Positions 3,967-59,188 of a DNA stretch of 64,000 nt are shown here, piece after piece. This DNA is from Patescibacteria group bacterium (GTDB lineage: Bacteria; Patescibacteriota; UBA1384; XYA2-FULL-43-10; 1-14-0-10-43-13), in assembly GCA_041666325.1 (NCBI GenBank), contig JBAYHC010000001.1:265708-329707 (forward strand), written 5' to 3'. Every line of letters begins with the position of its first letter. Positions within the stretch are counted from its first letter, which is position 1. The position numbers and the translations under genes are program-made. The notes below the pieces were generated by a model that was given only the letters and a program-made list of their open reading frames with translations, made no database searches and had not been told where the DNA came from.

Positions 3967-4239
3967 CTATTTTTCTTCCTTTTCCTGCTCGGCCTCTTTG
4001 CCTTCTTCGATTAGTTCACGTACGCGCTGTCCGCCTTTCTCTCCACCCTTTTTGCCAATTTCCTCGTAGAAGTCGTGACCGTGTGTCTCGCTGGTACGTT
4101 CGCCACCTTTTTCACCGATCTCCTCGTAGAATTCATGGCCATATTTTTCGCTTGTTGTTTCACCACCCTTTTTACCAGCTTCACGGACGGTCATCTCGCC
4201 ATCTTCCATCTCCTCGCGCTCTTTTTCGTCTCGGTCCAT
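3967..4239 (-). CDS. GsiB-like general stress protein, paralog 4 (two repeats)
   Basis: MTVREAGKKGGETTSEKYGHEFYEEIGEKGGERTSETHGHDFYEEIGKKGG; GAGGAGG RBS. Confidence 0.8.
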   Translation of the reverse strand: MDRDEKEREEMEDGEMTVREAGKKGGETTSEKYGHEFYEEIGEKGGERTSETHGHDFYEEIGKKGGEKGGQRVRELIEEGKEAEQEKEEK

Positions 4240-11979: not shown

Positions 11980-13365
11980 ATGGTCTCCAGTAAGAAAAAA
12001 GCACAAAACACAAAGGCGGCAACACACTCTAAGCGCGGTCGAAAGATTGTTTTTTTTGTGCTCGCTCTTTTTTTTATGCTTGTCATTTCCTTTTTTGCTT
12101 ATATTTACGCCCAAGGCACAAAAATATTTGAAGATGGCTTTGGTGCAAAGACTTCAATTTTCAGAAATATACGGGATAGCATCAAAAACGATGTTCCGCT
12201 CAAGGGTGAAAAAGACGAAAGAATCAACATCCTTTTCATGGGAATAGGTGGTGCCGACCATCCAGGCGGACAGCTTACCGATTCGATCATGATTGCCAGC
12301 TTCAAGCCTGAAGACAATTCGATGGCGCTGCTCTCTGTTCCCCGCGACCTCTACGTTCCTGTAGCAGACCACAAAATAAAGACCAAAATCAACGAAGTTG
12401 TTGCTCTGGGCGAGAGAGAAAAGCGTGGCAGTGGGCTAGCGCTGATGAACGACACCATTGAAGATATTTTTGATATCCCTGTCCACTACTACGTTACCGT
12501 TGATTTTGAGGCTTTTGAGAAAATCGTGGATGAAGTTGGCGGTATCGACGTAGCTGTCGACAAGACAATATATGACCCTTACTACCCTGACAAAGCCATG
12601 AAGGGATACGAACCGTTCTACGTCAAAGCCGGACAGCACCATATGAATGGGGAGATCGCGCTAAAATATGCCCGCTCCAGGCAAACCTCGTCTGACTTTG
12701 ATCGTGCCGAACGTCAACAAAAAATTATTATGGCGATAAAGGACAAAATATTAAGTCTGGGATTTATTGCCAACCCTAAGAAATCTCTGGACATGGCTAC
12801 AATCTTGGGCGACCACGTACGCACAAACATTCAGCCAAATGAACTCAGACGATTTGCTGAGATAATGCAAAAAGTCGATAGCAGCAAAGTGGCCAACCAG
12901 GTACTAACCAATGGCAGCGATGGCCCGCTCGTCTCAGACTCCAGCTCAGGAACATACTACCTAATGCCCAGAAACGATGATTACAGTAGTCTGGCCGAGA
13001 TAGCAAAAAACATATTCGACGATAATAGTTCTTCCAGCGAAAAGGCCACACTTGAAGTATTAAATGGTTCCAGTGTCTCCGGGCAAGCCATCAAACTTGC
13101 AGATACCTTCAAGGATCTCGGATATAAGGTTGTTAATATTGCTAACGCCGAAGAGATATACAAGCAAACAGTCATTCATGACTATACAAAAGGGGCTAAA
13201 TCAAGCACACTAGAGTTCCTCAAAAAGAGGCTAGACGCACCAATCATCGATAAAACAGGCACAAGTGCAAGCGGTGCCGAAATAGTGATCATCATCGGAC
13301 AAGACTACCTAGACGCATCATCAACCGGAACAAGTGCAACAGGCAATTCAGCACAACGAAAATAG
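11980..13365 (+). CDS. LCP family (LytR-CpsA-Psr) cell envelope polymer transferase with C-terminal LytR_C domain
   Basis: N-terminal TM, ILFMGIGGADHPGGQLTDSIMIASF...LLSVPRDLYV, KYARSRQTSSDFDRAERQQKII motifs. Confidence 0.8.
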   Translation: MVSSKKKAQNTKAATHSKRGRKIVFFVLALFFMLVISFFAYIYAQGTKIFEDGFGAKTSIFRNIRDSIKNDVPLKGEKDERINILFMGIGGADHPGGQLTDSIMIASFKPEDNSMALLSVPRDLYVPVADHKIKTKINEVVALGEREKRGSGLALMNDTIEDIFDIPVHYYVTVDFEAFEKIVDEVGGIDVAVDKTIYDPYYPDKAMKGYEPFYVKAGQHHMNGEIALKYARSRQTSSDFDRAERQQKIIMAIKDKILSLGFIANPKKSLDMATILGDHVRTNIQPNELRRFAEIMQKVDSSKVANQVLTNGSDGPLVSDSSSGTYYLMPRNDDYSSLAEIAKNIFDDNSSSSEKATLEVLNGSSVSGQAIKLADTFKDLGYKVVNIANAEEIYKQTVIHDYTKGAKSSTLEFLKKRLDAPIIDKTGTSASGAEIVIIIGQDYLDASSTGTSATGNSAQRK

Positions 13366-42178: not shown

Positions 42179-43198
42179 TCATAGTAATTTATTCTCCTTG
42201 TCAGGAGTATTGATACATAAATGATGATATGCAGCGGGCATTGATACTCTGCCCTGTTTTGTTCGAGAGATAAATCCCAATTGCAAAAGATAGGGCTCGA
42301 TCACATCTTCTATCGTGTCTTTGTCCTCAGCCATTGCCGCAGCAATTGTGTCTAGCCCAACCGGCCCACCTCGAAACTTATTTATTACCGTGCGAAGGTA
42401 TTCCCTGTCGCTCTGGTCCAATCCAAGATCATCGATATCAAGCTGATTTAACGCTTCCTTAGCGATATCTTCAGCAACAATACCAGAATGTTTGACTTCG
42501 GCATAGTCACGAACTCGGCGCAACAATCTATTTGCGATTCTCGGGGTACGTCTCGATCTTTTGGCAATCTCATCCACGCCACCCTTATCAACCGAAACCT
42601 TGATAATTCTAGATGATCGTCTCACGATTTTGCTTAATTCTGCATCGCCATAAAACTCCAAGCGATAAACAGCACCGAAACGATCGCGCAGAGGAGAGGA
42701 TAATAGCCCGATACGTGTCGTAGCACCAATCAGAGTAAAGCGCGGCAGCTCTAAGCGCATCGTTCTTGCCGACGGCCCCTTTCCCACAACTAAGTCAATC
42801 GCAAAATCCTCCATGGCAGGATACAAAACCTCTTCAACATGACGATTGATGCGATGAATCTCATCAACAAATAAGATGTCGCCTTCTTCCAGGTTAGTAA
42901 GAATCGATGCCAAATCTCCAGCACGCTCTATTGCGGGACCAGAGGTAATTCGAATATTTCGGCCCATCTCATTGGCGATGACATGCGCCAGAGTCGTCTT
43001 GCCCAAACCTGGGGGACCATAAAGCATAATATGCTCTATGGGATCGTTGCGTTGCTTAGCTGCCTGAATTAAGATACCCAGGTTTTCCTTGGCCTTTTCT
43101 TGACCAATGTATTCTGCTAACAACCGAGGACGAAGAGTTTCCTCGAATTCATCTTCGACATAAGATGGACTCGTTATTTTTTTGTCTATTTCAGGCAT
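42179..43198 (-). CDS. ruvB: Holliday junction branch-migration helicase RuvB
   Basis: [11 protein letters not shown] Walker [11 protein letters not shown], full-length RuvB similarity. Confidence 0.9.
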
Positions 43199-43396
43199 AA
43201 AGTTTTATCGTATTATTAGATTTAGATATTCACAAAATCAATGCCCACAGGGACCCTTCTGGTCGTAACAAGCTGGTGCTTTCAGCTTATTACAAGATAT
43301 AAATAGTCGTAGCATCAGTGCGCAAAAGGAGTGAAACGACTATTACAAGATACAGATAGTCACAAAATCAATGCGTAACAAGCTGGTGCTTTCAGC
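43199..43396. repeat. Intergenic cluster of the dispersed repeat family (two copies each of TCACAAAATCAATGC, GTAACAAGCTGGTGCTTTCAGCTTA hairpin unit and ATTACAAGATA-core)
   Basis: Exact and near-exact direct repeats read from sequence; same motifs recur at 43964-44256, 47285-47355, 53640-53670 and (reverse orientation) 58512-58677. Confidence 0.6.
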
Positions 43397-43963
43397 TTAC
43401 TTTGCCAGATGCTTCAGGCACCATCTAATTTTCTCTTCAGCAGTGTCAACCTCAACCGGAACCCTGGCCAAGGCCTTTGATATCTCAAACTTCTTGTACC
43501 CTAGACCAACAAGCGCTCCAACAACATCAGAGGCCTCACCGGCACTGCTAATTATTCCCGCTACATCAATATCAGACATTTTTGATTTAAGTTCCAGGAT
43601 AATTTTTGCAGCGACCTTCTGACCAATGCCTGGGATCCCGGTAAAGAAGGAAACATCCTCGGATGATATCGCCTGTAAAATTCTCTCCGGATCGCCAATT
43701 CCGATTATCGCCATTGCCGCCTTTGGTCCAACACCATTAACAGTAATGAGTTGCTCAAATATCTCCATTTCAGTAAATGTAGGGAAGCCGTAAAGATCGT
43801 CCGTGTCCTCACGTATGTGCTCGTATACAAAAAAAAATTGCTCTGATCCGACTAAATAGTCAGAGTCCTTGACTAAGCTTAGACGATAACCAACACCGCT
43901 GGTTTCAATAATAGCATAGCCAGGGCGAGAAACGATTATTTTTCCTTTGATGTAACCAATCAT
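43397..43963 (-). CDS. ruvA: Holliday junction DNA helicase RuvA
   Basis: MIGYIKGKI...HhH motifs GIPGIGQKVAAKIILEL. Confidence 0.85.
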   Translation of the reverse strand: MIGYIKGKIIVSRPGYAIIETSGVGYRLSLVKDSDYLVGSEQFFFVYEHIREDTDDLYGFPTFTEMEIFEQLITVNGVGPKAAMAIIGIGDPERILQAISSEDVSFFTGIPGIGQKVAAKIILELKSKMSDIDVAGIISSAGEASDVVGALVGLGYKKFEISKALARVPVEVDTAEEKIRWCLKHLAK

Positions 43964-44256
43964 ATTGTGATGAACAAATCCAAAGTTAAACGGGCCTTTG
44001 ACCGATTAATCGTATTATAACAAGGTATTATAGTAATTTTCCAGTGCGTAAAAGGAGTGAAGCGACTATTGCAAGATATAAAGCAATGAAGCTTAGATAC
44101 AAAGCGCAACAAAGCCAAAGGCTTTATAACAAGATACGAGGCAATGTGACAACGATACACTGCCCACAGGGACCATTTGGGTCGTTAAAAAAACGAAGTG
44201 ACTATACATTAAATAGGCTCGTTTGCTAGAGCCAAAGATTTTCCAGGCAAGTTATC
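43964..44256. repeat. Second locus of the dispersed repeat family (CAGTGCGTAAAAGGAGTGAAGCGACTATTGCAAGATATAAAGCAATGAAG ... CTTTATAACAAGATACGAGGCAATGTGACAACGATACAC ... GCCCACAGGGACC)
   Basis: Sequence identity to copies in 43199-43396 and 47285-47355. Confidence 0.55.
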
Positions 44257-44904
44257 TTACCGACCCAGGCTGAGCCCGTCTATCTTAAAAAAATCTGATT
44301 GCAAAGCGTTGATTATCCCGCGAACGGCCAGGTCCTCCTTGTCGTCACCAACGAATATTGGATTTCCGTTGGGCAGTGCTCTGATTTTTTCATCAATCTT
44401 CTCCAGTGCGAACACCTTATCTCTCAAGAAAGGCTCGGCGCCACCAACGATTATTGCAGGCATGCCGCTTTCGAAGATCATACTATAATCTACGGCGCCA
44501 TCACCCGCTACCACTCCAGAAAAATCCAACTGCTTCTGTAAATAGAGTGCGGCGAGATTTTTATCGGAAAGTTGCGCGTGATCTGTGTCTTGCAGATATC
44601 TGCCATTCAACTGCCTTACATAAATTTCACTCCCCAAAGAAACAGCCATGACATCGAATTGCGGTAACGACTCGATGCCCTCCACCATTTCCCTCCTTCT
44701 GCCAGTGATGTACACAAGACCCCAACACAAATACTGAAGATAATTATATAACCGCCACATGTCATCGACTGTCTCTGGGCTATAGAATGTGTTGTCAATA
44801 TCCGTCAGAAGCACGGGAAAAGCTCTTTTTTGTTTCTTGTGCCCCTGACTCTTGTGCCAAATCACACTCTCCCTGTAAGCCTTAGGAATCATGAACTTTG
44901 TCAT
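44257..44904 (-). CDS. HAD-IIB family phosphatase, sucrose-phosphate-phosphatase-like
   Basis: LLTDIDNTF (DxDxT), GDGAVDYSM...IIVGGAEP motifs. Confidence 0.7.
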   Translation of the reverse strand: MTKFMIPKAYRESVIWHKSQGHKKQKRAFPVLLTDIDNTFYSPETVDDMWRLYNYLQYLCWGLVYITGRRREMVEGIESLPQFDVMAVSLGSEIYVRQLNGRYLQDTDHAQLSDKNLAALYLQKQLDFSGVVAGDGAVDYSMIFESGMPAIIVGGAEPFLRDKVFALEKIDEKIRALPNGNPIFVGDDKEDLAVRGIINALQSDFFKIDGLSLGR

Positions 44905-45947
44905 CCCTGCTCTCCCAGCGCCATCTGGTAGGCCCCAAGATAGCCTGAGGCCATCGATTCAGTAGAAAACCTCATGGATACATCATCGCGACATGTCCTG
45001 CGCTCAAGTCCTTCCACATCATACATTTTTCGTAGCATCTCTTCTGGTGTCGTACAAACATATCCCGTCTCTCCATTCCGTATCACCTCGGGAGTGGATC
45101 CTCTTTTGTATGCAATAACGGGAGTACCACAAGCAAGTGCTTCGATGAAGTAGAGGCCAAAAGGCTCCTCCCACTGAATAGGAGCCAACAATGCCTTAGC
45201 GCCTCCTAACAATTTGTTCTTCACGCCATGATCAACCTCACCTATAAATTCAATCTGATTGCCGTCTATAAGCGGTGCGACTTCCCGCTCAAAGAATTTC
45301 GTATCCGCTTGGTCTACCTTTGCTGCCATAATAAGTTTCACTCCAGCTTGTTTTGCCAAATTAATAGCCTGTACTGGACCTTTCTCGGGTGACATTCGAC
45401 CCAGAAATACATAATAATCTCCAGATCTCCCCTGATAATCGAACTCCTCAACCCTTGTGCCATTATAAACGTTGGCGACGTAATTGAGTTGGGGCAAGGG
45501 CTTGCGCTGACTCTGACTAATACTTATGTACGATGCGTCGGCATACGCCCTATACAAAGACTGCTGGTGCGCCACTCCGAGAGGGCCGTGCAATGTATTA
45601 ACTACTGGCGCATCGATGAGCTTTAAGAATGGCAACAACCGCCACCCCAAGTGGTTATGAACAATGTCGAATTTCTCATCTGTCAGATATTCCAGCGCTC
45701 TTCCCAAACCGATGAATTTATTAGTATCACGCACCTTCGGGTCAACATTTAAAGGATCGGAGCGCAAAGATCTCGAAAAAACCGGTTTAATCTTTGCGCT
45801 GGTGATTGAATCACCGGTCGCTACAAGAGTGACGTCATGTCCTCTTCTTACTAACTCTTCTGTCAAAAAATGAACAACTCTCTCAGTTCCTCCATACTTT
45901 TTTGGCGGGACAGGCTCCTCAAAAGGGGCCAGCATCGCAATTTTCAT
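44901..45947 (-). CDS. GT4 family glycosyltransferase
   Basis: EPFGLYFIEALACGTPVIA C-terminal GT-B motif. Confidence 0.8.
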   Translation of the reverse strand: MKIAMLAPFEEPVPPKKYGGTERVVHFLTEELVRRGHDVTLVATGDSITSAKIKPVFSRSLRSDPLNVDPKVRDTNKFIGLGRALEYLTDEKFDIVHNHLGWRLLPFLKLIDAPVVNTLHGPLGVAHQQSLYRAYADASYISISQSQRKPLPQLNYVANVYNGTRVEEFDYQGRSGDYYVFLGRMSPEKGPVQAINLAKQAGVKLIMAAKVDQADTKFFEREVAPLIDGNQIEFIGEVDHGVKNKLLGGAKALLAPIQWEEPFGLYFIEALACGTPVIAYKRGSTPEVIRNGETGYVCTTPEEMLRKMYDVEGLERRTCRDDVSMRFSTESMASGYLGAYQMALGEQG

Positions 45948-47191
45948 AGCATCTCCTTCCTGTTGGTAAATTCCTCAAAGAACTCGGCATACTCACGAGA
46001 GATCTTTTCCCAGTTAAAGTGACGATTAATTCGAGACAGACATGCAAGCGAATAGTGTCCTCTGGCCTTGGCAAGAACTAGTTTTAGCTTCTCTGCAAGA
46101 TCGATGTGATTTCGAGGCTCCGCCAGATGCCCAGTAACACCGTCCCTAATAGTGAACTGAAGACCGCCGGTACGAGAAGCAACCACCGGCGTACCGCAAG
46201 CCATAGATTCTAGCGGAACAATACCAAAAGGCTCGTAATACGAGGGGACCACAACCACATCTGCAGCATTGTAGTAGCGAAAGAGTTGCTTTTGACTAAC
46301 CGGACCGACATAGACTACTTGCCCCTGTATGTTCAGCTCGGAAATTAGTTTTGATTGCCTTTCAAGCTCTTCCGCTTCGAGCATTTTTGCTGACTGGTTT
46401 GTGCTTCCGCCAACGACATATAGTTTACTGCTGGGATATTCTTTTTGCGCCAGAGCGAATGAACGCAATAGCGTTCCAATTCCCTTGCGCCATTCGAGCC
46501 GACCGACATAGAGAATATTTTTCTCGTCAGGCGACATCAATAACTTCGATTTAGGAGAAAAGGTAGTTGGTCGAAAAATCCTCGTATCAACTCCGATTGG
46601 TATGACCTTAATCTTCTCCTCGGCGACCTTAAAAATATCCATTATTGTAGCTTTTTCGACCGGGCTCGTTCCAATAATCCTGTCAACACTGCCAGTGATT
46701 GCAGCTTCTGATTTTAACCTCTCGGCAAACAAATCTGGGTTTGGGATTTGGTCAAACCGCTGAAATGTTTGAAGTCTAACCTGCCCGATCGAATGGAAAA
46801 CAAAAAAGTGGGGAAGATTAAGCCTTTTGCTTATCTCCATTCCCACTAAACCCGAGAGCCAGTAGTTAGAGTGAACTAAATCGTATTGTGTTTCTTCCTG
46901 CTCAATTCTTCTGAGTATATTCGCCGTGAATTCGGGAAGAAGAGATATAAACTCTTCCTTTGGCACATACCGCCTTGGTCCTGCTTTAACCCTTATCACG
47001 CGTATGTGATGATTAACCTTGGCTACTTCGATTTTATTAAGTCGATCCCACCTGGTAAAGATATCTACGAATATCCCAAGCCGCCCCAAGTACCGCGCCA
47101 GATAGTAGACGTAGATATTTTGCCCTCCAGCCTCTTTTGAGCCGATCTCCGCCAGCGGGTCGGAGTGATCGGAGATTAGTAATATTCTCAT
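45944..47191 (-). CDS. GT4 glycosyltransferase of the MshA / sucrose-phosphate-synthase-like subgroup
   Basis: MRILLISDHSDPLAEIGSKEAGGQNIYVYYLARYL (GGQNVYV hallmark), EPFGIVPLESMACGTPVVA; start set to MRILL (no SD; upstream TTG alternative). Confidence 0.75.
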   Translation of the reverse strand: MRILLISDHSDPLAEIGSKEAGGQNIYVYYLARYLGRLGIFVDIFTRWDRLNKIEVAKVNHHIRVIRVKAGPRRYVPKEEFISLLPEFTANILRRIEQEETQYDLVHSNYWLSGLVGMEISKRLNLPHFFVFHSIGQVRLQTFQRFDQIPNPDLFAERLKSEAAITGSVDRIIGTSPVEKATIMDIFKVAEEKIKVIPIGVDTRIFRPTTFSPKSKLLMSPDEKNILYVGRLEWRKGIGTLLRSFALAQKEYPSSKLYVVGGSTNQSAKMLEAEELERQSKLISELNIQGQVVYVGPVSQKQLFRYYNAADVVVVPSYYEPFGIVPLESMACGTPVVASRTGGLQFTIRDGVTGHLAEPRNHIDLAEKLKLVLAKARGHYSLACLSRINRHFNWEKISREYAEFFEEFTNRKEML

Positions 47192-47284
47192 GGTGTGCCG
47201 ACTGCGGCACACCACCTTAACACAGCGGCAAGAACGTGGCAATCAGATTTTTGTCACACACAAAAATTACCCAAATTAGAACTA

Positions 47285-47355
47285 TTTATTACAAGACACA
47301 AAGCAATGAAGTACGATACGGGTCGTAAAAGGAGTGAAACGACTATTACAAAACT
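47285..47355. repeat. Third locus of dispersed repeat family (TTATTACAAGACACAAAGCAATGAAG...GTCGTAAAAGGAGTGAAACGACTATTACAAAAC)
   Basis: Near-identity of the AAAAGGAGTGAA(A/G)CGACTATT(A/G)CAAGATA core to the other loci. Confidence 0.5.
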
Positions 47356-47360
47356 AGTAT

Positions 47361-48314
47361 TTAGCCGACAAGCGATGAATATGATTGACCGGCTCGCCTT
47401 AGATATTCTATCCATTGGTGCTTCTCAGCAGATAGAACCTTGTGCCAACCATTGCCGACAACGAGTCGTATCAGGCTTGCCCGAAAACACTCCTCGTCAT
47501 CCTTGGTTTTTATCCCCAGGCCAACCAGTTCCTTCTGCCAAACTGGATAGCGATAAAGATAGAGCCAAAGCTGGGCGATATCCATCATAAAATTGTCGAA
47601 TGTAAACCACTCGAAATCAGTCAGAACAAGAGATGAATCTTCTTTGATAATAATATTTGTTGGAACCAAATCACCGGTAATCACGCTCAATCTCTCACGA
47701 CTAAAGTATGTCTCAGAATAGGAATTATAGAAATCTAATTGTGGCTGGAGAGAAAAACCGATTTCTGATTCAATCATTTTGATATCATAAGTAGACAGAT
47801 CTCTGGGAAATTGAGGTCGCAAAAACTCATTAGAAAAATCAACACCCTTTGCCTCCGGATCATGCTCTCGAATCGAATCCAAGAAGCTTATTGTATCACC
47901 CAAAATCTGAACGTAGTCCCCAAGAAACTTATCCTTAATCAGACTATATTCGTAAACAAGGGGGCGTCCGGGCGTTTGGGAATATTGCGCGAGAGTCTCT
48001 CCAGGACAGTAGCTTCGAAGGACCCAGAAAAAATCACCAGACTCCCCCGAGCCAATTACTGCTGGAATTTTGGAAAACAACTCATTTCCAGAGGGGAAAA
48101 GCTTTTTCATTGCGTCAAAAGAGGCTATTTCCCTACGAAATTTGTAAAGAGTCCATGTGTCGGATTTGGCGGTAATCTTTAGGAATACTTTCTCTGATCC
48201 AATCAAGCCCTGGGCGAGAAACCGGCCGCCAGTCTGGTCATCATCAAGAAATACCTTTTCAATAATCAGGCTAAGCTTGTCGCATATATCTTGATAACCG
48301 GTTTTTATTGGCAT
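47361..48314 (-). CDS. APH-like (aminoglycoside/choline/sugar kinase fold) phosphotransferase
   Basis: ITGDLVPTNIII (HGD-type catalytic loop), LTDFEW (DFG-equivalent). Confidence 0.6.
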   Translation of the reverse strand: MPIKTGYQDICDKLSLIIEKVFLDDDQTGGRFLAQGLIGSEKVFLKITAKSDTWTLYKFRREIASFDAMKKLFPSGNELFSKIPAVIGSGESGDFFWVLRSYCPGETLAQYSQTPGRPLVYEYSLIKDKFLGDYVQILGDTISFLDSIREHDPEAKGVDFSNEFLRPQFPRDLSTYDIKMIESEIGFSLQPQLDFYNSYSETYFSRERLSVITGDLVPTNIIIKEDSSLVLTDFEWFTFDNFMMDIAQLWLYLYRYPVWQKELVGLGIKTKDDEECFRASLIRLVVGNGWHKVLSAEKHQWIEYLRRAGQSYSSLVG

Positions 48315-48328
48315 AATAAATTAAGTGA

Positions 48329-50521
48329 TTAGCTTTTAAACGATAGATAAGCAAGGAGATAAGTCACGATTGATTCAGCACCCTGATTCTGATTTACTCC
48401 ACGCCGCGTTACAGCGTCGAATACTCCGCGAGAAACATTGTCGTACACAATTGCGCCATTGATGTTGTTGCCAAAATACCACCCCATCCACTCGTGCGCT
48501 CTCTCCTTGTATTTCTTTTCGCTGGTCAAACGATAAAACTCATTATACATCAAGGCCATATCTCCAGCCTCGATTGATTGCTGGTCAAATATCGCTTTGC
48601 GCTGATTTTGGACATACCAACCATCCTGACCAATCGGAAGGGGGATCCCTTTGTAATGGCAGTTTTCACGCAAGAAATTGGCCGAGTCAATCGCAATCTT
48701 TAAATATTCTTTGTTGCCAATAATACCATAAGCCTTAGCAAGAGCATAAGGCACAATTCCGTTGGCGTATGTTAACGCCCCCTCAAACCATCGCCATTTC
48801 CCACTATCAGAGTTTTCTTTATACCTCTCAACTAATATGCCGGACAAGCGTTCGACTTCCTTTTTATTGCCAAGATAGCAATAACCGAGCAAATTATAAG
48901 CAATTGATTTTACAAAACCACATGTAATGTTTTTCTCATAAATTGGCAGAAGTTTTTTTGCCTCGCTTGTTATGACGGGATCTATTCCAGCAACAGAGGC
49001 GACATAAGACAGCGCCCAGAATGCTCTGGCTACTGAATCATCAGACGCAACAGAATCAACAAAATTTCTGTCCTTATCAAGAAAGTTGTGTATCAGACCA
49101 TTTGAATCGACAGCCTTGTGGAGGTAATTAAGATAGATCTTAGCTAGGACTTCCGCCTCTTCATTTCTAGTGCTTGATAGAAAATTGGCCGTCACGATCA
49201 GTGCTCGGGCCTGATCATCGAGACTATAACCAAAATCATAATTTGGCGCAGTGAGAACACAGTGCTGAACGATGCCGAACTCATCAGTTAGGTTTCTCAG
49301 ATATTTCAATGATGGCTTGTCTGCAAAATTTGGCATACGCTGCTTCCAGCGGTCCTTTTTTATAAAAAGATTAGACTCTAAAACTTTTAAATACTCAAGA
49401 CCAACCTTCGGCCAAATCATATCGCGGGCAAACTGGTAGCCCTTCAGGCACATCTTCTCGAAATTCGGTGACGATAGCAGTTTGTTTATCTCAGACGATA
49501 TTAGCTCCGGCTCCGGCAGAGTGATAATTCCCCTCCCCTTGGACAGAACCTCATTAGCATAGTTTGTTGGGGACGAAATTGCAGCACAGCCACAACCCAA
49601 AGCGTAGGAAAGAGTGCCGGAAAAAGCCTGCTTAAAATCAACCTGCGGAGCAAGATATATATCTGTTGCCTTTAGATAGTCGACAAGCTCACTATAGTCC
49701 AGATACTTGTTCACAAATTTTACATTGTCGCTAACGCCCTTCGTCTTGGCAAGATCAAGTAAACTGTTCCTGTAACTCTCACCCTCTCTCTTGAGGATAT
49801 TTGGATGCGTCGCACCGATTATCAGATAAGTGGTCTTGGGATATTGAGCTACAACCTTAGGCAGAGCTTCGATCGCATTTTCAATTCCTTTACCGCGATT
49901 AATTAAACCAAAAGTTGAGAGAACGGTTTGACCCTTCAGCCCAAGTCCTGCTTTTGCCTTTTCGCGCTCATCGAAGCGAACATTAGGTACGCCATGAGGA
50001 ACGATTTGAATTTTCTTGGAATCAACCCTGAACGTCTCGGTTAAAATCTTCTTGGCACTGTGGGTCATGACCACAACTGAGTCAGATAAATCCAGTATTC
50101 TCTGGGTTAACTTATAGCGATGCTCGCTATGCTCGCGCAGGACAGAGTGCAAGCTGGTAACAACCGGCTTGTTGAGGTTCTCCAATAAGCCTAAAACAAA
50201 CTTGCCGTCTTCACCACCATATATGCCGTACTCATGCTGAATGCTCACAACCTCAATTGAGCTATTGTTGAGAAATTCTGCTGCTTTGACGTATGATTGC
50301 TCGTTGTATTGATCGATCTCAAAAATTATCCTGCTAGAATATTTATATTTGCCCTTCTCGTCGCTTACGGCCACAATCTTCGTTTGGTTTCTAACATACA
50401 TTTCATCAAAAATCCTAACGAATGACTTGGTAAATGTGGCAATCCCACACTCGCGTGGAGGATAAGTTGAGATAAAGGCAATTTTAATCTTTGATTTGTC
50501 CATCGAGCTCCGTCCTTTCAA
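48329..50521 (-). CDS. Fusion protein: N-terminal GT4 glycosyltransferase + C-terminal ~330-aa alpha-helical (alpha/alpha)6-barrel glycoside-hydrolase-like domain
   Basis: N-terminal GT-B pattern (KIAFISTYPPRECGIATF...); C-terminal domain assignment is inference from helix-rich W/Y/G pattern. Confidence 0.6.
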   Translation of the reverse strand: MKGRSSMDKSKIKIAFISTYPPRECGIATFTKSFVRIFDEMYVRNQTKIVAVSDEKGKYKYSSRIIFEIDQYNEQSYVKAAEFLNNSSIEVVSIQHEYGIYGGEDGKFVLGLLENLNKPVVTSLHSVLREHSEHRYKLTQRILDLSDSVVVMTHSAKKILTETFRVDSKKIQIVPHGVPNVRFDEREKAKAGLGLKGQTVLSTFGLINRGKGIENAIEALPKVVAQYPKTTYLIIGATHPNILKREGESYRNSLLDLAKTKGVSDNVKFVNKYLDYSELVDYLKATDIYLAPQVDFKQAFSGTLSYALGCGCAAISSPTNYANEVLSKGRGIITLPEPELISSEINKLLSSPNFEKMCLKGYQFARDMIWPKVGLEYLKVLESNLFIKKDRWKQRMPNFADKPSLKYLRNLTDEFGIVQHCVLTAPNYDFGYSLDDQARALIVTANFLSSTRNEEAEVLAKIYLNYLHKAVDSNGLIHNFLDKDRNFVDSVASDDSVARAFWALSYVASVAGIDPVITSEAKKLLPIYEKNITCGFVKSIAYNLLGYCYLGNKKEVERLSGILVERYKENSDSGKWRWFEGALTYANGIVPYALAKAYGIIGNKEYLKIAIDSANFLRENCHYKGIPLPIGQDGWYVQNQRKAIFDQQSIEAGDMALMYNEFYRLTSEKKYKERAHEWMGWYFGNNINGAIVYDNVSRGVFDAVTRRGVNQNQGAESIVTYLLAYLSFKS

Positions 50522-50626
50522 AAAAACAGCTTATGCCGGTTACCACACAATTTATTCCCAAGCATAAGCAAAATTATATGAACATACCATAACCGCAAAA
50601 GCGCCATTTGTCAATGCTAAAAGACG

Positions 50627-51574
50627 CTAAATATTGCCCTTAGCAGCCACCATTCCGATCGAATGATAAACCTCATCTCTGTCCGAAACGGCCAATCCAA
50701 TACCCTGATCACCTGCACCATAATATGTTAAAAATTTATCGTCCACTTCGATTAAGCCTGTTGGAAAAACCACGCTATCTACCAACCCTCTCTGCTCATA
50801 TATCCGCTCTGGCTGAAAGATAGGCTCATCGCTACGAGCAATTACGTGGCTCGGGTTAACTAAGTCTAGCAACATCCAACCTGTGCGATATGTTGGTCTA
50901 GTATCTACGCCATGATATACAAGAAACCAACCAAACGGAGTCCTTATAGGTGGTGCACCTGCCCCAATCTTAACACTATCCCAGAGGTCCTTGCGAGGCT
51001 TAGCGATAGAAACATGACCAGACCAATCGCGAAGATTATCAGAAAAGGAGATCCAAATATCAGGATAGACTCGATGCAACAGAACATACTGTCCTGCCAC
51101 TTTTTCTGGAAACAATACCGCGTCCTTTGAGTCAAATTCCGGCAAAACAACACCGAAATCAACGAAACTCTGAAAATCAGTTGTCTCTGCTAAAGCCACT
51201 CTCGTTCTCCAAGGGGGCTCAGATAATTCACCGATCAATTCTTTGACCGGGTACACAGAGGCAAGGGTGTATGTTATAAGAAACCTGTCCTCAATTCTGA
51301 CAACGCGAGGATCCTCGCATCCCAGGCGACCATCGATGTTACCGGGGGTCGTCTCAAAAACAGGCAGTTCTGAACGTTCTCTGAAGTCAATTCCATCCGG
51401 TGAGCAAGCATAGCCAAAACGAGAGATACGATCAATGCCCATTGCCCTGTATAGCATATGTATCTTGCCTGCATCACAAACTACTCCCGGGTTGAAGACT
51501 GACTGTGCCTCCCACCACTTCTCTGCCCGCGGCGCCAGAATGAGGCTATCGGTAGATCGGTTAAGTTTAAACAT
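50627..51574 (-). CDS. GH130 family glycoside phosphorylase/hydrolase (beta-mannoside phosphorylase-like, DUF377)
   Basis: WEAQSVFNPGVV...GKIHMLYRA...GCEDPRVV...FLVYHGV motifs. Confidence 0.75.
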   Translation of the reverse strand: MFKLNRSTDSLILAPRAEKWWEAQSVFNPGVVCDAGKIHMLYRAMGIDRISRFGYACSPDGIDFRERSELPVFETTPGNIDGRLGCEDPRVVRIEDRFLITYTLASVYPVKELIGELSEPPWRTRVALAETTDFQSFVDFGVVLPEFDSKDAVLFPEKVAGQYVLLHRVYPDIWISFSDNLRDWSGHVSIAKPRKDLWDSVKIGAGAPPIRTPFGWFLVYHGVDTRPTYRTGWMLLDLVNPSHVIARSDEPIFQPERIYEQRGLVDSVVFPTGLIEVDDKFLTYYGAGDQGIGLAVSDRDEVYHSIGMVAAKGNI

Positions 51575-51583
51575 CTTGGTAAT

Positions 51584-52588
51584 TTAACGCGGTTCGCCCG
51601 CCAGAGCAACACCTATCTCGTCAAGATTGAGAGTCTGATTTTTGAGATCAAGTAATCTCGTTAGCATTTGATAAAAATAGTTAAAGCCTTCTTTGACAAC
51701 GCTCATTTCATAAGGGTTCTTCTCTGGGTTCTCCATAGAGTAAGTCCAGTGCTGAAGCTCTCTTGATATTTGGTAAACCAACATTGGCAATAGTGTTTGG
51801 ACAAGCTGGTCCGAGGCAGAAGTACTTAAACCTGCCTTGAATCTCTCGGCTAATAATGTTTGCGCCTCCGGATAACGCCAGGACGTAGCCCAAATATGAA
51901 CAAAATCCTCAACACAACTCCCCAAATGGGCAGATTCCCAATCAGTCACCAAAACAGCCTTATCAGCGAATACTATGTTTCCAAAGTGAAAATCACCATG
52001 AACAAGTCCTTCGCCCGCCATCAAGTATTTGGTAGGCCCAGAGATTATTTCACTTACCCTGGAAAGAAAGTTCGGAATATATTTGTGAAGTCGAGCAGCG
52101 CACTCTTCCATCGGCTTTAAATAATAAAATGGTGAAATTTCTTTTAATGACAACGGTGCACGGAATGAGTCCAGCTCGAAGATAACATTGATGGCATTGA
52201 TACACCGATCTCGCAGATTGGCTTGATTGTCCAAGATGAGATGAACATCACCAACAACATCTCCCTCGACATATTCCCTGAGGTACCAGGAAAAATCACC
52301 AGTTTCACAGTCAACAATTTTCGGAACGACGAATGATCTGAAAGAGATTTCTCCAAGCTGTTGATTTAGCCCAATCTCCTTCTTGAACGGCTGAGACCGA
52401 TTGTCCCCCTCAAAAACCAAGGCCTTAAAAAAGTATCGTTTGCCGTCTTTTCCGTCACAGATTGTTTTAAAAAACTTTTTGCCCGAGATCTCAGCATCGC
52501 TAAGATATTGGTCGGGAGCCAGACCAGGAACCAACTGCTTCTCTGCCAGAAGACCACTAATTTTTTTATCAATTTCTGGTATCAACAT
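51584..52588 (-). CDS. APH-like phosphotransferase (second paralog)
   Basis: LVHGDFHFGNIVF, LVTDWES motifs. Confidence 0.6.
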   Translation of the reverse strand: MLIPEIDKKISGLLAEKQLVPGLAPDQYLSDAEISGKKFFKTICDGKDGKRYFFKALVFEGDNRSQPFKKEIGLNQQLGEISFRSFVVPKIVDCETGDFSWYLREYVEGDVVGDVHLILDNQANLRDRCINAINVIFELDSFRAPLSLKEISPFYYLKPMEECAARLHKYIPNFLSRVSEIISGPTKYLMAGEGLVHGDFHFGNIVFADKAVLVTDWESAHLGSCVEDFVHIWATSWRYPEAQTLLAERFKAGLSTSASDQLVQTLLPMLVYQISRELQHWTYSMENPEKNPYEMSVVKEGFNYFYQMLTRLLDLKNQTLNLDEIGVALAGEPR

Positions 52589-52597
52589 TTATTCACC

Positions 52598-53620
52598 CTA
52601 TTTCTTTAAAACAAATTTGTCTGCACTTTCGGCCTTCTTCTCCTGTAAATATCCCGCAGCAGCCTCTGGTGCCATGACATTGATTATTACATCACTGCCA
52701 AGCTCGAAGCCACCATAATTAGCAATCCTTGGCACAATTTCAATATGCCAATGATAGGAGGCGGAATCATCTAGAATCGGTGGCAAGGTATGAACATAAA
52801 AATTTAGAGGCGGATTTCCAAGAGTCTCATCCAACATGTGAAAAACGTTTTGCGATATCTCAGCCAGAGCAGACATGCTTACCCTCGACGTTAACTCGAA
52901 CTGACTTTCGTGGCGCTTGGGTATTATCCAAGTTTCAAATGGAAAACGCGATGCAAAAAAGTTTATGGCAATATAATGATCATTCTGCCATATTATTCGA
53001 ATTTTTTCCCTCATTTCATGCTTAACAATATCACAATAAACACAAGCACCGTTTATTCCGTAGTACCTATCTGACCCATCCATCTCTCGCCCAACCGTAT
53101 TGGCCACTATTCCGGACGCAAATATCTGAGCATGAGGATGCTCAATTGATGCGCCTGCTTCAGCGCCATGATTGTAGATTGGCATAATAGACACGACGTT
53201 CTCGTGCTTTTTCATCCACAGATACCTTTCCCTGATTGTCTCGAACAATTCAGCGAGAACGACTCTTGGAAACTTCATCAGTGAAAGATCGTGATCCTTC
53301 ACAATCACAACCTCATGATCTCCAGTCGAAGGACGTGCACGATAGAAGCCCTCCTCTGGGTAAAAACTCCTCGTGCTATTCGGAGTTTTGCCCTCCTGAA
53401 AAGCAGGAAAACGGTTCTCAATTACATAAACATTTTCAGTGGACGATCCCCGCACCCTGTCGTTGTCCTTATATTTGTCCGAACCCTCACAAAATGGACA
53501 TTCACATTTGGGCACTACCTTTTGACTTTTGGGAATCAAAAAATCTTGGGGCCTCTTTGCTCTTTCGGGAGCAACAACAACCCAGTCTCCGGTAATAATA
53601 TTTTGGCGAAGTTGCGGCAT
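52598..53620 (-). CDS. Galactose-1-phosphate uridylyltransferase-type HIT enzyme (GalT family; could be ADP/UDP-sugar phosphorylase)
   Basis: CPFCEG zinc site, HPHAQIFA (HxHxQ) active site; start set to MPQLRQNI. Confidence 0.7.
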   Translation of the reverse strand: MPQLRQNIITGDWVVVAPERAKRPQDFLIPKSQKVVPKCECPFCEGSDKYKDNDRVRGSSTENVYVIENRFPAFQEGKTPNSTRSFYPEEGFYRARPSTGDHEVVIVKDHDLSLMKFPRVVLAELFETIRERYLWMKKHENVVSIMPIYNHGAEAGASIEHPHAQIFASGIVANTVGREMDGSDRYYGINGACVYCDIVKHEMREKIRIIWQNDHYIAINFFASRFPFETWIIPKRHESQFELTSRVSMSALAEISQNVFHMLDETLGNPPLNFYVHTLPPILDDSASYHWHIEIVPRIANYGGFELGSDVIINVMAPEAAAGYLQEKKAESADKFVLKK

Positions 53621-53689
53621 CAAACCCTCCAAAAGGTATCGTTTTTTATTACAAGATATTATAGACAAGAACTCGGTGCGCAACAAAGG

Positions 53690-53787
53690 GTTAATACCCC
53701 ACAGCTTGCTGCGGAACCCTGGGCCTGGGGCTTCCTTTAACCACGAGCAGCCCAGGATCGAGCGGTGCCACGGGGTATTGTACCCAT
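53690..53787 (-). ncRNA. Candidate structured GC-rich RNA element (~100 nt; outer helix GGGUACAAUACCCC / GGGGUAUUAACCC closing internal CCUGGGC/GCCCAGG and GCUGC/GCAGC helices); possibly a small SRP (4.5S)-like RNA or a ruvC 3-prime structure
   Basis: Local GC >60% in AT-rich intergenic DNA; nested inverted repeats read by eye; contains AGGAAGC reminiscent of SRP helix 8 but no clean GGAA tetraloop. Confidence 0.25.
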
Positions 53788-53797
53788 TATAAGAGTA

Positions 53798-54310
53798 CTA
53801 GATTCTACTTTGTGCATTGATCATCTGGCGACTTGATTGAGCGTGGCAAATTGCAATAGCAAGCGCATCAGCTGCATCGTCAGGCTTCGGAATAGTATCA
53901 AGGCAACAGACCATCTTGACCATCTCTTGTATCTGTCTCTTTTCGGCACGACCATATCCGGTCAATGCTTGTTTGACTTGGAGAGGGGTGTATTCAAAAA
54001 CAGGACGACCGCTTTTTACTGCTGAGAGTACCGCAACACCACGAGCTTCCGCCACCTCCATCACCGTTTTCTGATTTTTAAAAAAGAAAAGTTTCTCAAT
54101 CGCCACCTCATCAGGAGTATTCTTTTTTATTATAACACGTAGCTCTTCATATATAGCAATAAGTCGGTCGGGCAAGTACGAATTTTTTTCCGTCACAATA
54201 CAACCATAATCTAGGGCACGGATAGTTCCCCTATCCCTCTCGACTAGGCCCCATCCCAAAAGATTGATTCCAGGATCAATGCCAAGTACTTTTATTGGTT
54301 TCGAGCTCAT
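53798..54310 (-). CDS. ruvC: Crossover junction endodeoxyribonuclease RuvC
   Basis: KVLGIDPGINLLGWGLV...DAADALAIAICHA motifs. Confidence 0.85.
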   Translation of the reverse strand: MSSKPIKVLGIDPGINLLGWGLVERDRGTIRALDYGCIVTEKNSYLPDRLIAIYEELRVIIKKNTPDEVAIEKLFFFKNQKTVMEVAEARGVAVLSAVKSGRPVFEYTPLQVKQALTGYGRAEKRQIQEMVKMVCCLDTIPKPDDAADALAIAICHAQSSRQMINAQSRI

Positions 54311-54392: not shown

Positions 54393-55121
54393 CTATGCCA
54401 TATTAGTGTATACATTAGTCACATCCTCGAGCTCTTCGATTTTTTCAATTAAGTTTGAAACTGAGTCTGCTTTCTCGCTGGGAAGCAGAACAGGAGTTGT
54501 TGCAACTTGAATAATCTCTGCGGAATCAACAATAACACCCTTTTCTTCAAGGGCGCTTTTTACTGAGTGAAGGCTACCCGGTGCTGTCCGAACGACATAG
54601 AATCCATCCTCAGAATCAAAATCATCGGCACCCGAATCAATAATCACCATCTCAAGTTCTTCCCCTTTAGCATTGCTCTTGCTCTCGCTGAGTGCTATCT
54701 CTCCAACTGTCCGAAACTGATACAAAACACTGCCACTCCCAGCCATGGATCCACTATACTTGTTTAGTATTGCCTTTATATCAGAAACAGTGCGATTGCG
54801 ATTATCTGTCAACGTTTCTATGAGCATCGCAACCCCCGATGGGCCGTATGCCTCATAAGTTACCTCTTCAATCTTTACGCTGTCGCCGCCCTCGCCTAAT
54901 CCGCGCTTAATAGCGCGTTCTATGTTTTCCTTGGGCATGCTAACTGCGCGCGCGTTATCCATTGCCATGCGAAGAGAGGGATTAAAGTTAGGATCGCCAC
55001 TTTTACCGTCTCTGGTAGCAATCGTTATGAGTCCGGCCAGCTTGGTGAAGATTTTCGCCCTCTTCGAGTCAATTGCAGCTTTTTTCCTTTTGGTTGTTGC
55101 CCATTTGCTATGTCCTGACAT
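54393..55121 (-). CDS. yebC: YebC/PmpR family DNA-binding transcriptional regulator
   Basis: MSGHSKWATTKRKKAAIDSKRAKIFTKL canonical N-terminus. Confidence 0.85.
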   Translation of the reverse strand: MSGHSKWATTKRKKAAIDSKRAKIFTKLAGLITIATRDGKSGDPNFNPSLRMAMDNARAVSMPKENIERAIKRGLGEGGDSVKIEEVTYEAYGPSGVAMLIETLTDNRNRTVSDIKAILNKYSGSMAGSGSVLYQFRTVGEIALSESKSNAKGEELEMVIIDSGADDFDSEDGFYVVRTAPGSLHSVKSALEEKGVIVDSAEIIQVATTPVLLPSEKADSVSNLIEKIEELEDVTNVYTNMA

Positions 55122-58432: not shown

Positions 58433-58511
58433 GTACCACCGGCCATTGCCTTTAATTTGAAGTTAGGGTAATATTTTTCTGAAATCAGATAAATGCTAAC
58501 TATAAGCAAAG

Positions 58512-58677
58512 CCTTTAACGCCGTGTATCAAGTCACATTACTTTATATCTTGTTATAGTCGACCAGGGGCCTTCTTTAACGCACTGTATCAAGCTGCATT
58601 ACTTTATATCTTGTTATAGTCACTTCGTTCCTTTAACGCCGTGTATCAAGTCACATTACTTTATATCTTGTTATAGG
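58512..58677. repeat. Three tandem ~59-nt copies of CCTTTAACGCCGTGTATCAAGTCACATTACTTTATATCTTGTTATAG(TC); reverse-complement relatives of the ATAACAAGATATAAAG dispersed repeat; last copy ends 10 nt before grpE ATG
   Basis: Read directly. Confidence 0.65.
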
Positions 58678-58687
58678 ATAGTAAAAA

Positions 58688-59188
58688 ATGAACAAAAAAG
58701 ACACATCCTCCATGAATGAACAAAGTGAACCCAAAACCAGCCCCGAGATAGAAGAACTCAAGAACAAGATCGACGACCTAACCACCGGCTGGCAAAGAAC
58801 TCAGGCCGACTTTATTAATTTCAGAAACCAGACAACCCGAGAACGCTCGCAACTGGCCAAGATCGCCAAAGCAAGTCTGATCGAAGAAATTTTGCCGGTT
58901 CTCGATAACTTTGCCCTAGCCGCAAAACATCTCCCCGAAGAACTTAAGAACAATAGCTGGGCTCAAGGGGTACAGCAAGTCGAAAAACAGCTGGAGGCAA
59001 TTCTGACAAATGAGGGCTTGGATAAAATTAAAACTATTGGCGAACAATTTAATCCTGAGCTTCATGAGGCCATCGAAGAAGTTGAATCAGACAAGGCCGT
59101 AGATGAAATTATTGAAGAAATTGCAGCTGGATATAAATTTGACGACCTTATTGTTAGGCCAGCAAAGGTGAAAATCTCAAAAGGCTAG
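58688..59188 (+). CDS. grpE: Nucleotide exchange factor GrpE
   Basis: Coiled-coil N-terminus + LPVLDNF...GYKFDDLIVRPAKV. Confidence 0.85.
   Translation: MNKKDTSSMNEQSEPKTSPEIEELKNKIDDLTTGWQRTQADFINFRNQTTRERSQLAKIAKASLIEEILPVLDNFALAAKHLPEELKNNSWAQGVQQVEKQLEAILTNEGLDKIKTIGEQFNPELHEAIEEVESDKAVDEIIEEIAAGYKFDDLIVRPAKVKISKG

Follow-up and report, generated by a model that had tools for sequence, protein, structure and literature searches.

A split ruv locus of a Patescibacteria group bacterium carries two putative sugar operons, predicted to serve sucrose-type synthesis and mannoside turnover

Gene content and arrangement between ruvA and ruvC

The window analysed in this work is a stretch of 64,000 nucleotides from contig JBAYHC010000001.1 of a Patescibacteria group bacterium (assembly GCA_041666325.1), in which ruvA and ruvC, both on the minus strand, are separated by a gap of 9.8 kb, with ruvB and yebC lying outside. 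This gap holds eight intact sugar-metabolism genes, all of them on the minus strand and together spanning positions 44257-53620. The original prediction had listed the same eight genes, with their domains, from the letters of the sequence, and open reading frame (ORF) and domain searches confirmed that list. The genes of the locus and its flanks are as follows (GT4, glycosyltransferase family 4; HAD, haloacid dehalogenase; SPS, sucrose-phosphate synthase; GSS, glucosylsucrose synthase; S6PP, sucrose-6F-phosphate phosphohydrolase).

42179-43198, minus strand: ruvB, left flank, outside ruvA
43397-43963, minus strand: ruvA, left flank of the sugar locus
44257-44904, minus strand: HAD-IIB phosphatase of the S6PP family, putative last gene of operon 2
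44901-45947, minus strand: GSS-like GT4 of 348 aa (PDB match to TeGSS), putative middle gene of operon 2
45944-47191, minus strand: SPS/MshA-like GT4 of 415 aa, putative first gene of operon 2
47361-48314, minus strand: APH-fold kinase A, putative last gene of operon 1
48329-50503, minus strand: fusion of a GT4 with an (alpha/alpha)6 domain, 724 aa (Pfam), operon 1
50627-51574, minus strand: GH130 (Pfam), operon 1
51584-52588, minus strand: APH-fold kinase B (Pfam), operon 1
52598-53620, minus strand: GalT-like gene, putative first gene of operon 1
53798-54310, minus strand: ruvC, right flank
54393-55121, minus strand: yebC, beyond ruvC
58688-59188, plus strand: grpE, followed by dnaK

From queA (39481) to comEC (58432) every gene lies on the minus strand apart from one short-chain dehydrogenase/reductase (SDR) gene. 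The order along the window is queA, an ORF encoding a bPH-like protein, queH, ruvB, ruvA, the eight sugar genes, ruvC, yebC, the SDR gene (plus strand), a metallo-beta-lactamase (MBL)-fold gene and comEC. The longest ORF of the GalT-like gene extends to 53686; its start is likely the ATG at 53620, as judged from the homologues and from the GGAGG that precedes this codon. Since no hydrophobic segment was found in any of the eight proteins, all of them are predicted to be soluble and cytoplasmic.

The division into two operons is suggested by a dispersed repeat. Its unit of about 55 nt has the form TAT[TA]ACAAGATA, about 20 nt, CA.TGCG.AA, and includes a 28-nt core that would never be expected by chance. 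The copies in the window, together with two hairpins, are listed below.

43204-43399, minus strand: repeat, three units between ruvB and ruvA, upstream of ruvB
44042-44190, minus strand: repeat, two units upstream of ruvA
44216-44233, minus strand: terminator-like hairpin, 24 nt past the stop codon of the HAD gene, consensus match only
47279-47355, minus strand: repeat unit or units between the kinase A and SPS-like genes, upstream of the latter, at the putative start of operon 2
53647-53690, minus strand: repeat, degenerate copy upstream of the GalT-like gene
53690-53780, minus strand: GC-rich stem-loop of about 87 nt, between the ruvC stop codon and the promoter region of the GalT-like gene
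58505-58683, plus strand: repeat, three units in tandem and inverted relative to the other copies; the array ends 5 nt ahead of the grpE start codon

All copies are located 5' of a gene start and in the same orientation as that gene (ruvB, ruvA, the SPS-like gene, the GalT-like gene and grpE-dnaK). Because of this constant placement, the repeat reads as a shared promoter/operator element, not as an insertion scar, and it looks like a link between heat-shock, DNA-repair and sugar operons. In the copy before the GalT-like gene, TTGTTG, a 17-nt spacer and TATAAT, followed by GGAGG and ATG, were read by eye on the gene strand; a consensus promoter scan did not list this site. When the core motif was searched in all retrieved loci, one copy was found in the related locus L003 (described below), in the same relative orientation and 5' of a second fusion gene, and the sole other match was in a distant locus, L057. 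It had been claimed that the repeat family bounds the gene set. Copies are indeed present at both edges (44042-44190 and the degenerate 53647-53690), but they also occur inside (47279-47355), before ruvB and before grpE, and are thus not boundaries. As a putative regulatory element, the repeat would split the region into operon 1, from the GalT-like gene to kinase A, and operon 2, from the SPS-like gene to the HAD gene.

The hairpin at 44216-44233 is the probable end of operon 2. The stem-loop at 53690-53780 folds with -49.1 kcal/mol (z = -2.85; 0 of 200 shuffled sequences folded equally well). A U-tract is absent, Rfam gave no match for it, and the sequence of its stem is not repeated elsewhere in the window. 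Conceivable roles are an unusual terminator, a structured RNA or a site bound by a protein. The Rfam scan of the 40-60 kb region returned nothing but one sub-threshold ssnA match, with no known riboswitch or other RNA.

Enzymes encoded by the two putative operons

The best match in the PDB for the 415-aa GT4 of operon 2 was 6kih, the sucrose-phosphate synthase Tll1590 (TeSPS), with an E-value of 1.3e-77 and 39.5% identity; its match to an MshA structure was weaker (1e-52). In NCBIfam it scored below the cutoff both for MshA, its best match there (271 bits against 462), and for sucr_P_syn_N (137 bits against 576). Residues His158, Glu331, Pro332, Glu339, Arg178, Arg249 and Arg253 of TeSPS are kept, the equivalents of the catalytic and phosphate-binding residues being H150, E337, R175, R248 and R252, and Arg105 is replaced by K95. 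MshA (mycothiol) was rejected as the identity of this protein, which is below the MshA cutoff, is closer to TeSPS and is encoded beside GSS-like and S6PP-like genes.

The 348-aa GT4 encoded next to it matched TeGSS (7fg9/8x3q, tll1591) over its full length, with an E-value of 7e-96 and 48% identity over 337 residues. TeGSS is a UDP-Glc:sucrose alpha-1,2-glucosyltransferase that makes the glucosylsucroses of cyanobacteria (PMC9909042). The equivalents of its Tyr18, Arg179, Lys184, Trp254 and Glu256 are kept in the window protein, where Y18, R184, K189 and E261 match Tyr18, Arg179, Lys184 and Glu256, respectively. For the third protein, S6PP was the sole Pfam family matched (3e-10, 40.5 bits against a cutoff of 20.3), in an alignment that covers only residues 31-98, the N-terminal part; its NCBIfam HAD-IIB score was below the cutoff. 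The HAD motifs I, II and IV are present (DIDNT at 35-39, TGR at 67-69 and GDDKED at 186-191).

The SPS-like and GSS-like genes are adjacent, with a 4-nt overlap, not only in the window but also in two contigs (L091 and L093) of other bacteria of the candidate phyla radiation (CPR). In other CPR contigs the SPS-like orthologues paired with a GSS-like gene are 51-52% identical to the window protein, and their GSS-like partners 57-63%. The pairs are located as follows.

L091, 5721-8104: SPS-like/GSS-like pair in another CPR contig, beside an MscS channel gene
L093, 5760-8047: SPS-like/GSS-like pair in another CPR contig, beside polysaccharide flippase and GT2 genes
L095, 10001-12498: GSS and then SPS genes, Thermosynechococcus

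Because the same pair sits at unrelated loci in other CPR genomes, it is a movable cassette, which lies inside the ruv locus in this genome. In Thermosynechococcus, tll1590 and tll1591 likewise adjoin each other. The combination of genes had initially been considered not assignable to a described pathway; this does not hold for operon 2, given the TeSPS, TeGSS and S6PP matches and the adjacency of the two genes in Thermosynechococcus. Most economically, operon 2 can be read as encoding a sugar-phosphate synthase, a phosphatase for its product and an enzyme for alpha-1,2 extension, which together would make a sugar of the sucrose/glucosylsucrose type. The GSS family is treated as cyanobacterial in the one functional paper found. 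We observed that GSS-like GT4s are abundant in Moranbacteria, Saccharibacteria, Doudnabacteria and Portnoybacteria.

In operon 1, the GalT-like protein contains the N- and C-terminal GalP_UDP_transf domains of Pfam (PF01087 and PF02744), with the motifs CPFC at 63-66 (CxxC metal site) and HPHAQ at 183-187 (HxHxQ, nucleotidylated His). It scored just below the cutoff of TIGR00209 galT_1 (101.9 against 102.1). Its best solved relative is 1z84, the GalT-like protein At5g18200 of Arabidopsis (6.6e-53), which we take to be an ADP-glucose phosphorylase; classical GalT proteins matched at about 1e-23. Kinase B matched the Pfam APH family at 7.8e-13 and carries HGDxxxxN and DWE motifs in its translation, and kinase A matched it at 1.5e-5 with GDxxxxN and DFE motifs. 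Kinases A and B share only 23% identity but keep the catalytic and Mg-binding Asp motifs. Homologues of kinase A with 27-30% identity are present in the same locus of two relatives, L003 and L008.

The GH130 protein was assigned by Pfam (PF04041, 2.7e-54, 184.7 bits against a cutoff of 26). Its best PDB matches were 9fj8, the 1,2-beta-oligomannan phosphorylase Teth514_1788 (1.6e-68), and 7fip, a beta-1,2-mannobiose phosphorylase (1.8e-63); structures labelled as putative glycosidase or glycoside hydrolase matched at about 1e-28, and beta-1,4 enzymes were also well behind. N28, D88 (within EDPR) and D289 correspond to the catalytic N28, D92 and D281 of Teth514_1788. Beta-1,2-mannobiose phosphorylase was also the best NCBIfam match, with 288.5 bits against a cutoff of 450. 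From these comparisons, the protein is predicted to resemble the beta-1,2-mannoside phosphorylases (subfamilies GH130_4 and GH130_6). All characterised beta-1,2 phosphorylases of GH130 also have weak GDP-Man transferase activity (PMC12814180). For the cluster of Thermoanaerobacter that encodes a GH130, a Man-1-P guanylyltransferase and a GT4, an ATP-sparing salvage route to GDP-mannose has been proposed, and NahK, an APH-fold anomeric kinase, was used to make alpha-Man-1-P from mannose (PMC4264767).

The fusion protein is 100% identical to MFA5927018.1 of NCBI, from a metagenome-assembled genome of a Patescibacteria group bacterium. Both AlphaFold2 models had a pLDDT of 93. In the structure match, the N-terminal half of the fusion showed a GT-B/GT4 fold. 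The C-terminal half is an (alpha/alpha)6 barrel, with YPO2471 (7tem) as its best match (profile E-value of 1.4e-21, TM 0.79), and Foldseek gave TM values of 0.68-0.74 against cellobiose 2-epimerase, YihS and mannose isomerase. The invariant residues of the barrel are DD (in GY[ST]LDD[NQ]ARA), DQQ, D and E.

Inheritance of the locus and distribution of the fusion gene

Four Patescibacteria contigs from other samples (L001, L003, L007 and L008) carry a fusion protein 50-66% identical to that of the window. Their gene orders are given below.

L001: comEC, MBL, yebC, ruvC, GalT, APH, GH130, fusion, GT4, ruvA
L003: yebC, ruvC, GalT, GH130, fusion, a variable segment (GT2/HAD, His_Phos, GT4, GT2, APH, second fusion), ruvA, ruvB, queH
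L007: further genes, then yebC, ruvC, GalT, GH130, fusion, a variable segment (GT4, DUF218, GT2, GT2, GT4, APH), ruvA, second fusion, queA
L008: GalT, a variable segment (GATase, three ATP-grasp, APH-like), fusion, ruvA, ruvB, queH, further genes, queA

The GalT-like gene always adjoins ruvC or sits at the edge of the locus in these relatives. The core sugar genes have diverged from those of the window (GalT 49-68% identity, fusion 50-65%, GH130 43-48%) to about the same degree as the flanking housekeeping genes (ruvB 65-74%, ruvA 38-55%, ruvC 42-63%, yebC 44-70%). Because the four relatives keep the same core genes between ruvC and ruvA, the split ruv cluster is ancestral to a subclade, with a variable accessory content. 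No homologues of the SPS-like and HAD genes were found in the ruv loci of these relatives. Second fusion paralogues, 51-59% identical to the window protein, were observed at 10971-13160 of L003 and at 18936-21200 of L007, where the copy sits beyond ruvA. A Berkelbacteria genome (L005/L006) carries the fusion gene alone, at a different locus, and there the gene lies directly 5' of a heliorhodopsin gene (12193-12942).

In the original prediction the gene set was framed as an island that had entered between ruvC and ruvA and was bounded by the dispersed repeats. In favour of a horizontally acquired island it can be said that the ruv genes are contiguous in many bacteria, that repeat copies are present at both edges, and that the SPS-like/GSS-like pair, the HAD gene and kinase B differ between relatives, with their nearest homologues at other loci of other CPR genomes; gene gain within the locus has thus occurred. 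However, the split ruv arrangement and the core genes are common to the four relatives, which was the first half of the test proposed for refuting the insertion (relatives with the same genes in the same place, and one well-known pathway). The composition is also native: GC content is flat throughout (0.42-0.47), the third-position GC content (GC3) of the eight genes is indistinguishable from that of the remaining genes, and their codon usage correlates with the rest of the window with r = 0.82, against a mean of 0.76 in a split-half control of the remaining genes. No tRNA was found within 9 kb of the sugar locus, and no integrase, transposase or other mobility gene was seen among the domain matches there. 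Repeat copies are also present within the region and ahead of ruvB and grpE, each pointing the same way as the gene that follows it. Taken together, these data already contradict an inserted island for the locus as a whole, and we regard such an island as very improbable.

The fusion family comprises more than 7,900 clusters at 90% identity (a lower bound), and the fusion was found in at least 600 species representatives of GTDB, including CPR, DPANN, Asgard, Bathyarchaeia, Acidobacteriota and Bacteroidota. Among the matches listed, the archaeal carriers are Bathyarchaeia, Woesearchaeota, Altiarchaeota and Promethearchaeota, and the bacterial ones Brocadiaceae, Chloroflexota, Acidobacteriota, Planctomycetota and Bacteroidota; cultured carriers within the Bacteroidota are Pedobacter, Parapedobacter, Dyadobacter, Pontibacter, Lewinella and Maribellus. 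The barrel family alone comprises 1,282 clusters at 50% identity with E-values of 1e-30 or lower, and stand-alone proteins of about 350 aa and fusions of about 740 aa are about equally common among its best 150 matches.

The neighbourhood of the fusion gene was analysed in the best 80 distant loci (34-40% identity) from an alignment-based scan of genome contigs. Of these, 62 contain a GH130 gene, which in 58 lies within 3.5 kb of the fusion gene; it follows the fusion gene directly on the same strand in 30 loci and directly precedes it in 6. In 20 of the 80 loci, a GSS-like GT4 that is 37-44% identical to TeGSS is encoded within 2.5 kb. No other neighbour recurs in more than 8, the rarer ones including GHMP and ROK sugar kinases and a GDE_C/GH100 (invertase-clan) protein. 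Fusion and GH130, with or without the GSS-like GT4, are therefore a widely conserved module of two to three genes. The GalT-like, APH-fold kinase, SPS-like and HAD genes were specific to the CPR relatives in the locus comparison. In an Omnitrophota locus, an NTP_transferase (GMPPB-like) gene adjoins the fusion gene. In the literature, no functional study was found on the fusion/GH130 pairing or on 7TEM/YPO2471.

Proposed pathway, alternatives and known systems

The general idea that these genes serve the synthesis and recycling of a cytoplasmic glycoside held up. The routes that had been named as examples did not: for a glucosyl- or mannosyl-glycerate route, no GpgS/MpgS-type (GT81/GT55/GT78) or MpgP signal was found in Pfam or NCBIfam, and for a maltose-1-phosphate (Mak/GlgE) route there was no GlgE/Mak-type match, GlgM being only a distant neighbour by structure or sequence. 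We propose that the locus is a vertically inherited, content-variable glyco-locus, not an inserted island, in which two co-directional operons of soluble cytoplasmic enzymes combine sucrose-type synthesis with phosphorolytic mannoside turnover. We give this model, taken as a whole, an even chance of being correct. It builds on gene content, families, catalytic residues, synteny and the conservation of the module, all of which were observed; the substrates, the flux direction and the role in the cell are inferred throughout and would be as follows.

In operon 2 (47191 to 44257), the SPS-like GT4 would couple an NDP-hexose with a hexose phosphate; judged from its closest characterised relative, this step would be the formation of sucrose-6-P from UDP-Glc and Fru-6-P. 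The S6PP-family HAD phosphatase would take off the phosphate and the GSS-like GT4 would add an alpha-1,2-linked hexose, giving a non-reducing protective or reserve sugar of the sucrose/glucosylsucrose type. Operon 1 (53620 to 47361) would be a module for phosphorolytic turnover and regeneration of nucleotide sugars. The GH130 enzyme would reversibly phosphorolyse a beta-(1,2)-mannoside into alpha-Man-1-P and a free sugar, the APH-fold kinases would re-phosphorylate the free hexose, and the GalT-fold enzyme would convert the hexose-1-P into an NDP-hexose, either by exchange of the nucleotidyl group or by NDP-sugar phosphorolysis run in reverse, with no NTP spent. This order (phosphorolysis, anomeric re-phosphorylation and nucleotidyl transfer) is proposed because of the Thermoanaerobacter and bifidobacterial precedents compared below. 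The fusion protein would use or reshape the same glycoside.

Several observations weigh against this model. The SPS-like, GH130 and GalT-like proteins are all under the NCBIfam equivalog cutoffs. In the GSS-like GT4, Trp10 of TeGSS, which stacks on the fructose of sucrose, is replaced by E, and the rim residues are also changed (Y70 to P, E74 to K, R117 to P, T119 to V and N122 to Q); because of these six replacements, its acceptor may differ from sucrose. Given these acceptor-site differences and the sub-threshold scores, the exact sugars of operon 2 may be others, and a GDP-Man-using mannosylfructose-phosphate synthase (MFPS), as in the MFPS pathway of Agrobacterium, is an alternative identity for the SPS-like GT4. 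Neither of the APH-fold kinases matched a solved structure at E < 0.01; an assignment as Mak, NahK or MTR kinase could therefore not be made. The barrel of the fusion lacks a conserved His pair (25 or 48 homologues compared) and has a single near-invariant His; a pair of catalytic histidines is what we take to be the hallmark of the AGE family, and the invariant residues of the barrel rather resemble those of a glycosidase or of a binding cleft. In its GT domain, the consensus of 48 bacterial and archaeal homologues shows Q292-X7-Y300 where EX7E is expected, and Leu where GRxxxxKG has its donor-phosphate-binding Arg (G199-L200...K205-G206). TeSPS and TeGSS require both this Glu and this Arg (PMC9909042 for TeGSS). 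The donor of the fusion may therefore not be a standard NDP-sugar, being possibly a sugar-1-phosphate, or the domain may be non-catalytic. Neither the fusion nor GH130 was found near the SPS/GSS locus of Thermosynechococcus. Finally, GT4 enzymes are retaining and make alpha-linkages, whereas GH130 acts on beta-mannosides, so that a metabolite common to both operons is not required.

The main rival to the model is a surface or cell-envelope glycan locus, in which host-derived mannosides would be phosphorolysed, converted into nucleotide sugars and used for a GT4-built surface glycoconjugate. The SPS-like/GSS-like pairs of L093 and L094, located by a Polysacc_synt flippase gene, GT2 genes and a radical SAM gene, point in this direction and away from the proposed model, as do the variable segments of the relatives, with their GT2, GT2-HAD fusion, DUF218 and His_Phos_1 genes. 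The source annotations also read "glycosyltransferase involved in cell wall biosynthesis", which are automatic names, and CPR bacteria are thought to rely on their hosts for sugars. However, none of the eight proteins has a membrane segment, and the locus of the window contains no flippase, polyprenyl-phosphate transferase or polymerase. A phosphorylase, kinases and a phosphatase acting on sugar phosphates are typical components of small-molecule sugar metabolism in the cytoplasm, and the nearest characterised relatives of two of the GT4s make soluble sugars. On balance we consider a surface glycan unlikely, though it deserves serious attention.

Alternatively, operon 1 could serve the catabolism of imported beta-mannosides alone, as has been proposed for Teth514_1785-1796, with the SPS-like, GSS-like and HAD genes as an unrelated neighbouring operon. 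The GH130 protein is closest to Teth514_1788/1789, the Thermoanaerobacter cluster likewise encodes a GH130, a sugar-1-P nucleotidyltransferase and a GT4, and the two operons of the window are separable, the SPS/GSS pair occurring alone elsewhere. Against this, there is no transporter or secreted glycosidase in or adjoining the locus. Fusion and GH130 are kept together across lifestyles (Acidobacteriota, Chloroflexota, Bathyarchaeia), transport genes being mostly not among the recurrent neighbours, and the GSS-like GT4 is a recurrent third member (20 of the 80 loci). A purely catabolic role seems decidedly improbable. Beyond the window, we advance only as a speculation, which is much more likely to fail than to hold, that fusion and GH130, often with the GSS-like GT4, constitute an ancient, widespread prokaryotic pathway that makes and phosphorolyses a cytoplasmic oligosaccharide reserve or stress sugar. 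In this CPR lineage it would be coupled to an NTP-sparing GalT-fold NDP-sugar phosphorylase and anomeric kinases, and would serve the ultra-small cells as a carbohydrate buffer that conserves energy. Its product could be, for example, a mannogen-like beta-1,2-mannoside on an alpha-glycoside primer.

For the two-operon model, weak hints of a role in stress are given by the repeat shared with grpE-dnaK, by KGG/LEA_5-like genes in the window and by the MscS gene beside the L091 cassette. Hydrophilins and non-reducing sugars are a classic pair in desiccation tolerance. Four KGG-repeat/LEA_5-like hydrophilin paralogues are encoded in the window.

1702-1896, plus strand: KGG-repeat/LEA_5-like hydrophilin gene
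2244-2480, plus strand: KGG-repeat/LEA_5-like hydrophilin gene
2508-2693, plus strand: KGG-repeat/LEA_5-like hydrophilin gene
3967-4239, minus strand: KGG-repeat/LEA_5-like hydrophilin gene

These paralogues (stress-induced acidophilic repeat) account for the inverted and direct repeats at 1.7-4.2 kb. Most direct-repeat families of the window originate from another gene, at 23772-30893 on the minus strand, which encodes a probable giant surface protein of 2373 aa with about 20 tandem repeats of about 50 aa (150-153 nt) and with fn3, Laminin_G and purple-acid-phosphatase-N domains.

Patescibacteria (CPR) have a minimal metabolism, and little is known of their carbon storage and of their survival under osmotic stress or desiccation. 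If the proposed model is correct, the sucrose/glucosylsucrose pathway would extend the stress-sugar system of cyanobacteria to non-photosynthetic ultra-small bacteria. Since cultured carriers exist (Pedobacter, Dyadobacter, Pontibacter), the function of the fusion/GH130 module is directly testable.

Among known systems, operon 2 resembles the sucrose/glucosylsucrose (sucroglucan) system of cyanobacteria (Tll1590, SPP, Tll1591/alr1000) in its adjacent SPS-like and GSS-like genes, followed here by the S6PP-family HAD gene, and in the conservation of the catalytic His and Glu, of the UDP- and phosphate-binding Arg residues and of Tyr18, Arg179 and Lys184. It differs in its non-photosynthetic CPR host and in gene order, SPS preceding GSS with a 4-nt overlap here, whereas GSS precedes SPS in cyanobacteria. 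The replacement of Trp10 and of five rim residues, the sub-cutoff SPS scores and the exclusively N-terminal S6PP match also set it apart.

The barrel of the fusion shares its fold with the AGE superfamily (cellobiose 2-epimerase, YihS, mannose isomerase) and with YPO2471 (7tem), but at 11-18% identity and without the catalytic His pair. In mannan catabolism, GH130 enzymes are known to act together with cellobiose 2-epimerase. Operon 1 as a whole is comparable with the Teth514_1785-1796 cluster of Thermoanaerobacter sp. X-514, where a GH130 gene also lies beside genes for a GT4 and for an enzyme converting hexose-1-P into NDP-hexose. In contrast to that cluster, the window encodes a GalT/HIT-fold enzyme instead of an NTP_transferase and two APH-fold kinases, its GT4 is fused to an (alpha/alpha)6 domain, and it has neither an ABC transporter nor a GH5. 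The bifidobacterial lacto-N-biose/galacto-N-biose (LNB/GNB) pathway consists of a GH112 phosphorylase, NahK, GalT and GalE. As proposed for operon 1, a disaccharide phosphorylase, an APH-fold anomeric kinase and a GalT-type transferase are encoded together there; unlike it, the window has GH130 in place of GH112, no epimerase gene and no transporter, and its kinases are without detectable similarity to any solved kinase. As proposed for the GH130 of the window, the five-bladed propeller enzyme of the mannogen cycle of Leishmania both makes and phosphorolyses beta-1,2-mannosides; it is a GT108, a family related to GH130. A beta-1,2-mannan reserve is not known from any prokaryote that carries the fusion/GH130 module. 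Taken against these systems, operon 2 would add a member to the cyanobacterial SPS/GSS/SPP kind, and operon 1 would represent a phosphorylase-centred salvage route built on a widespread, uncharacterised pair of enzymes.

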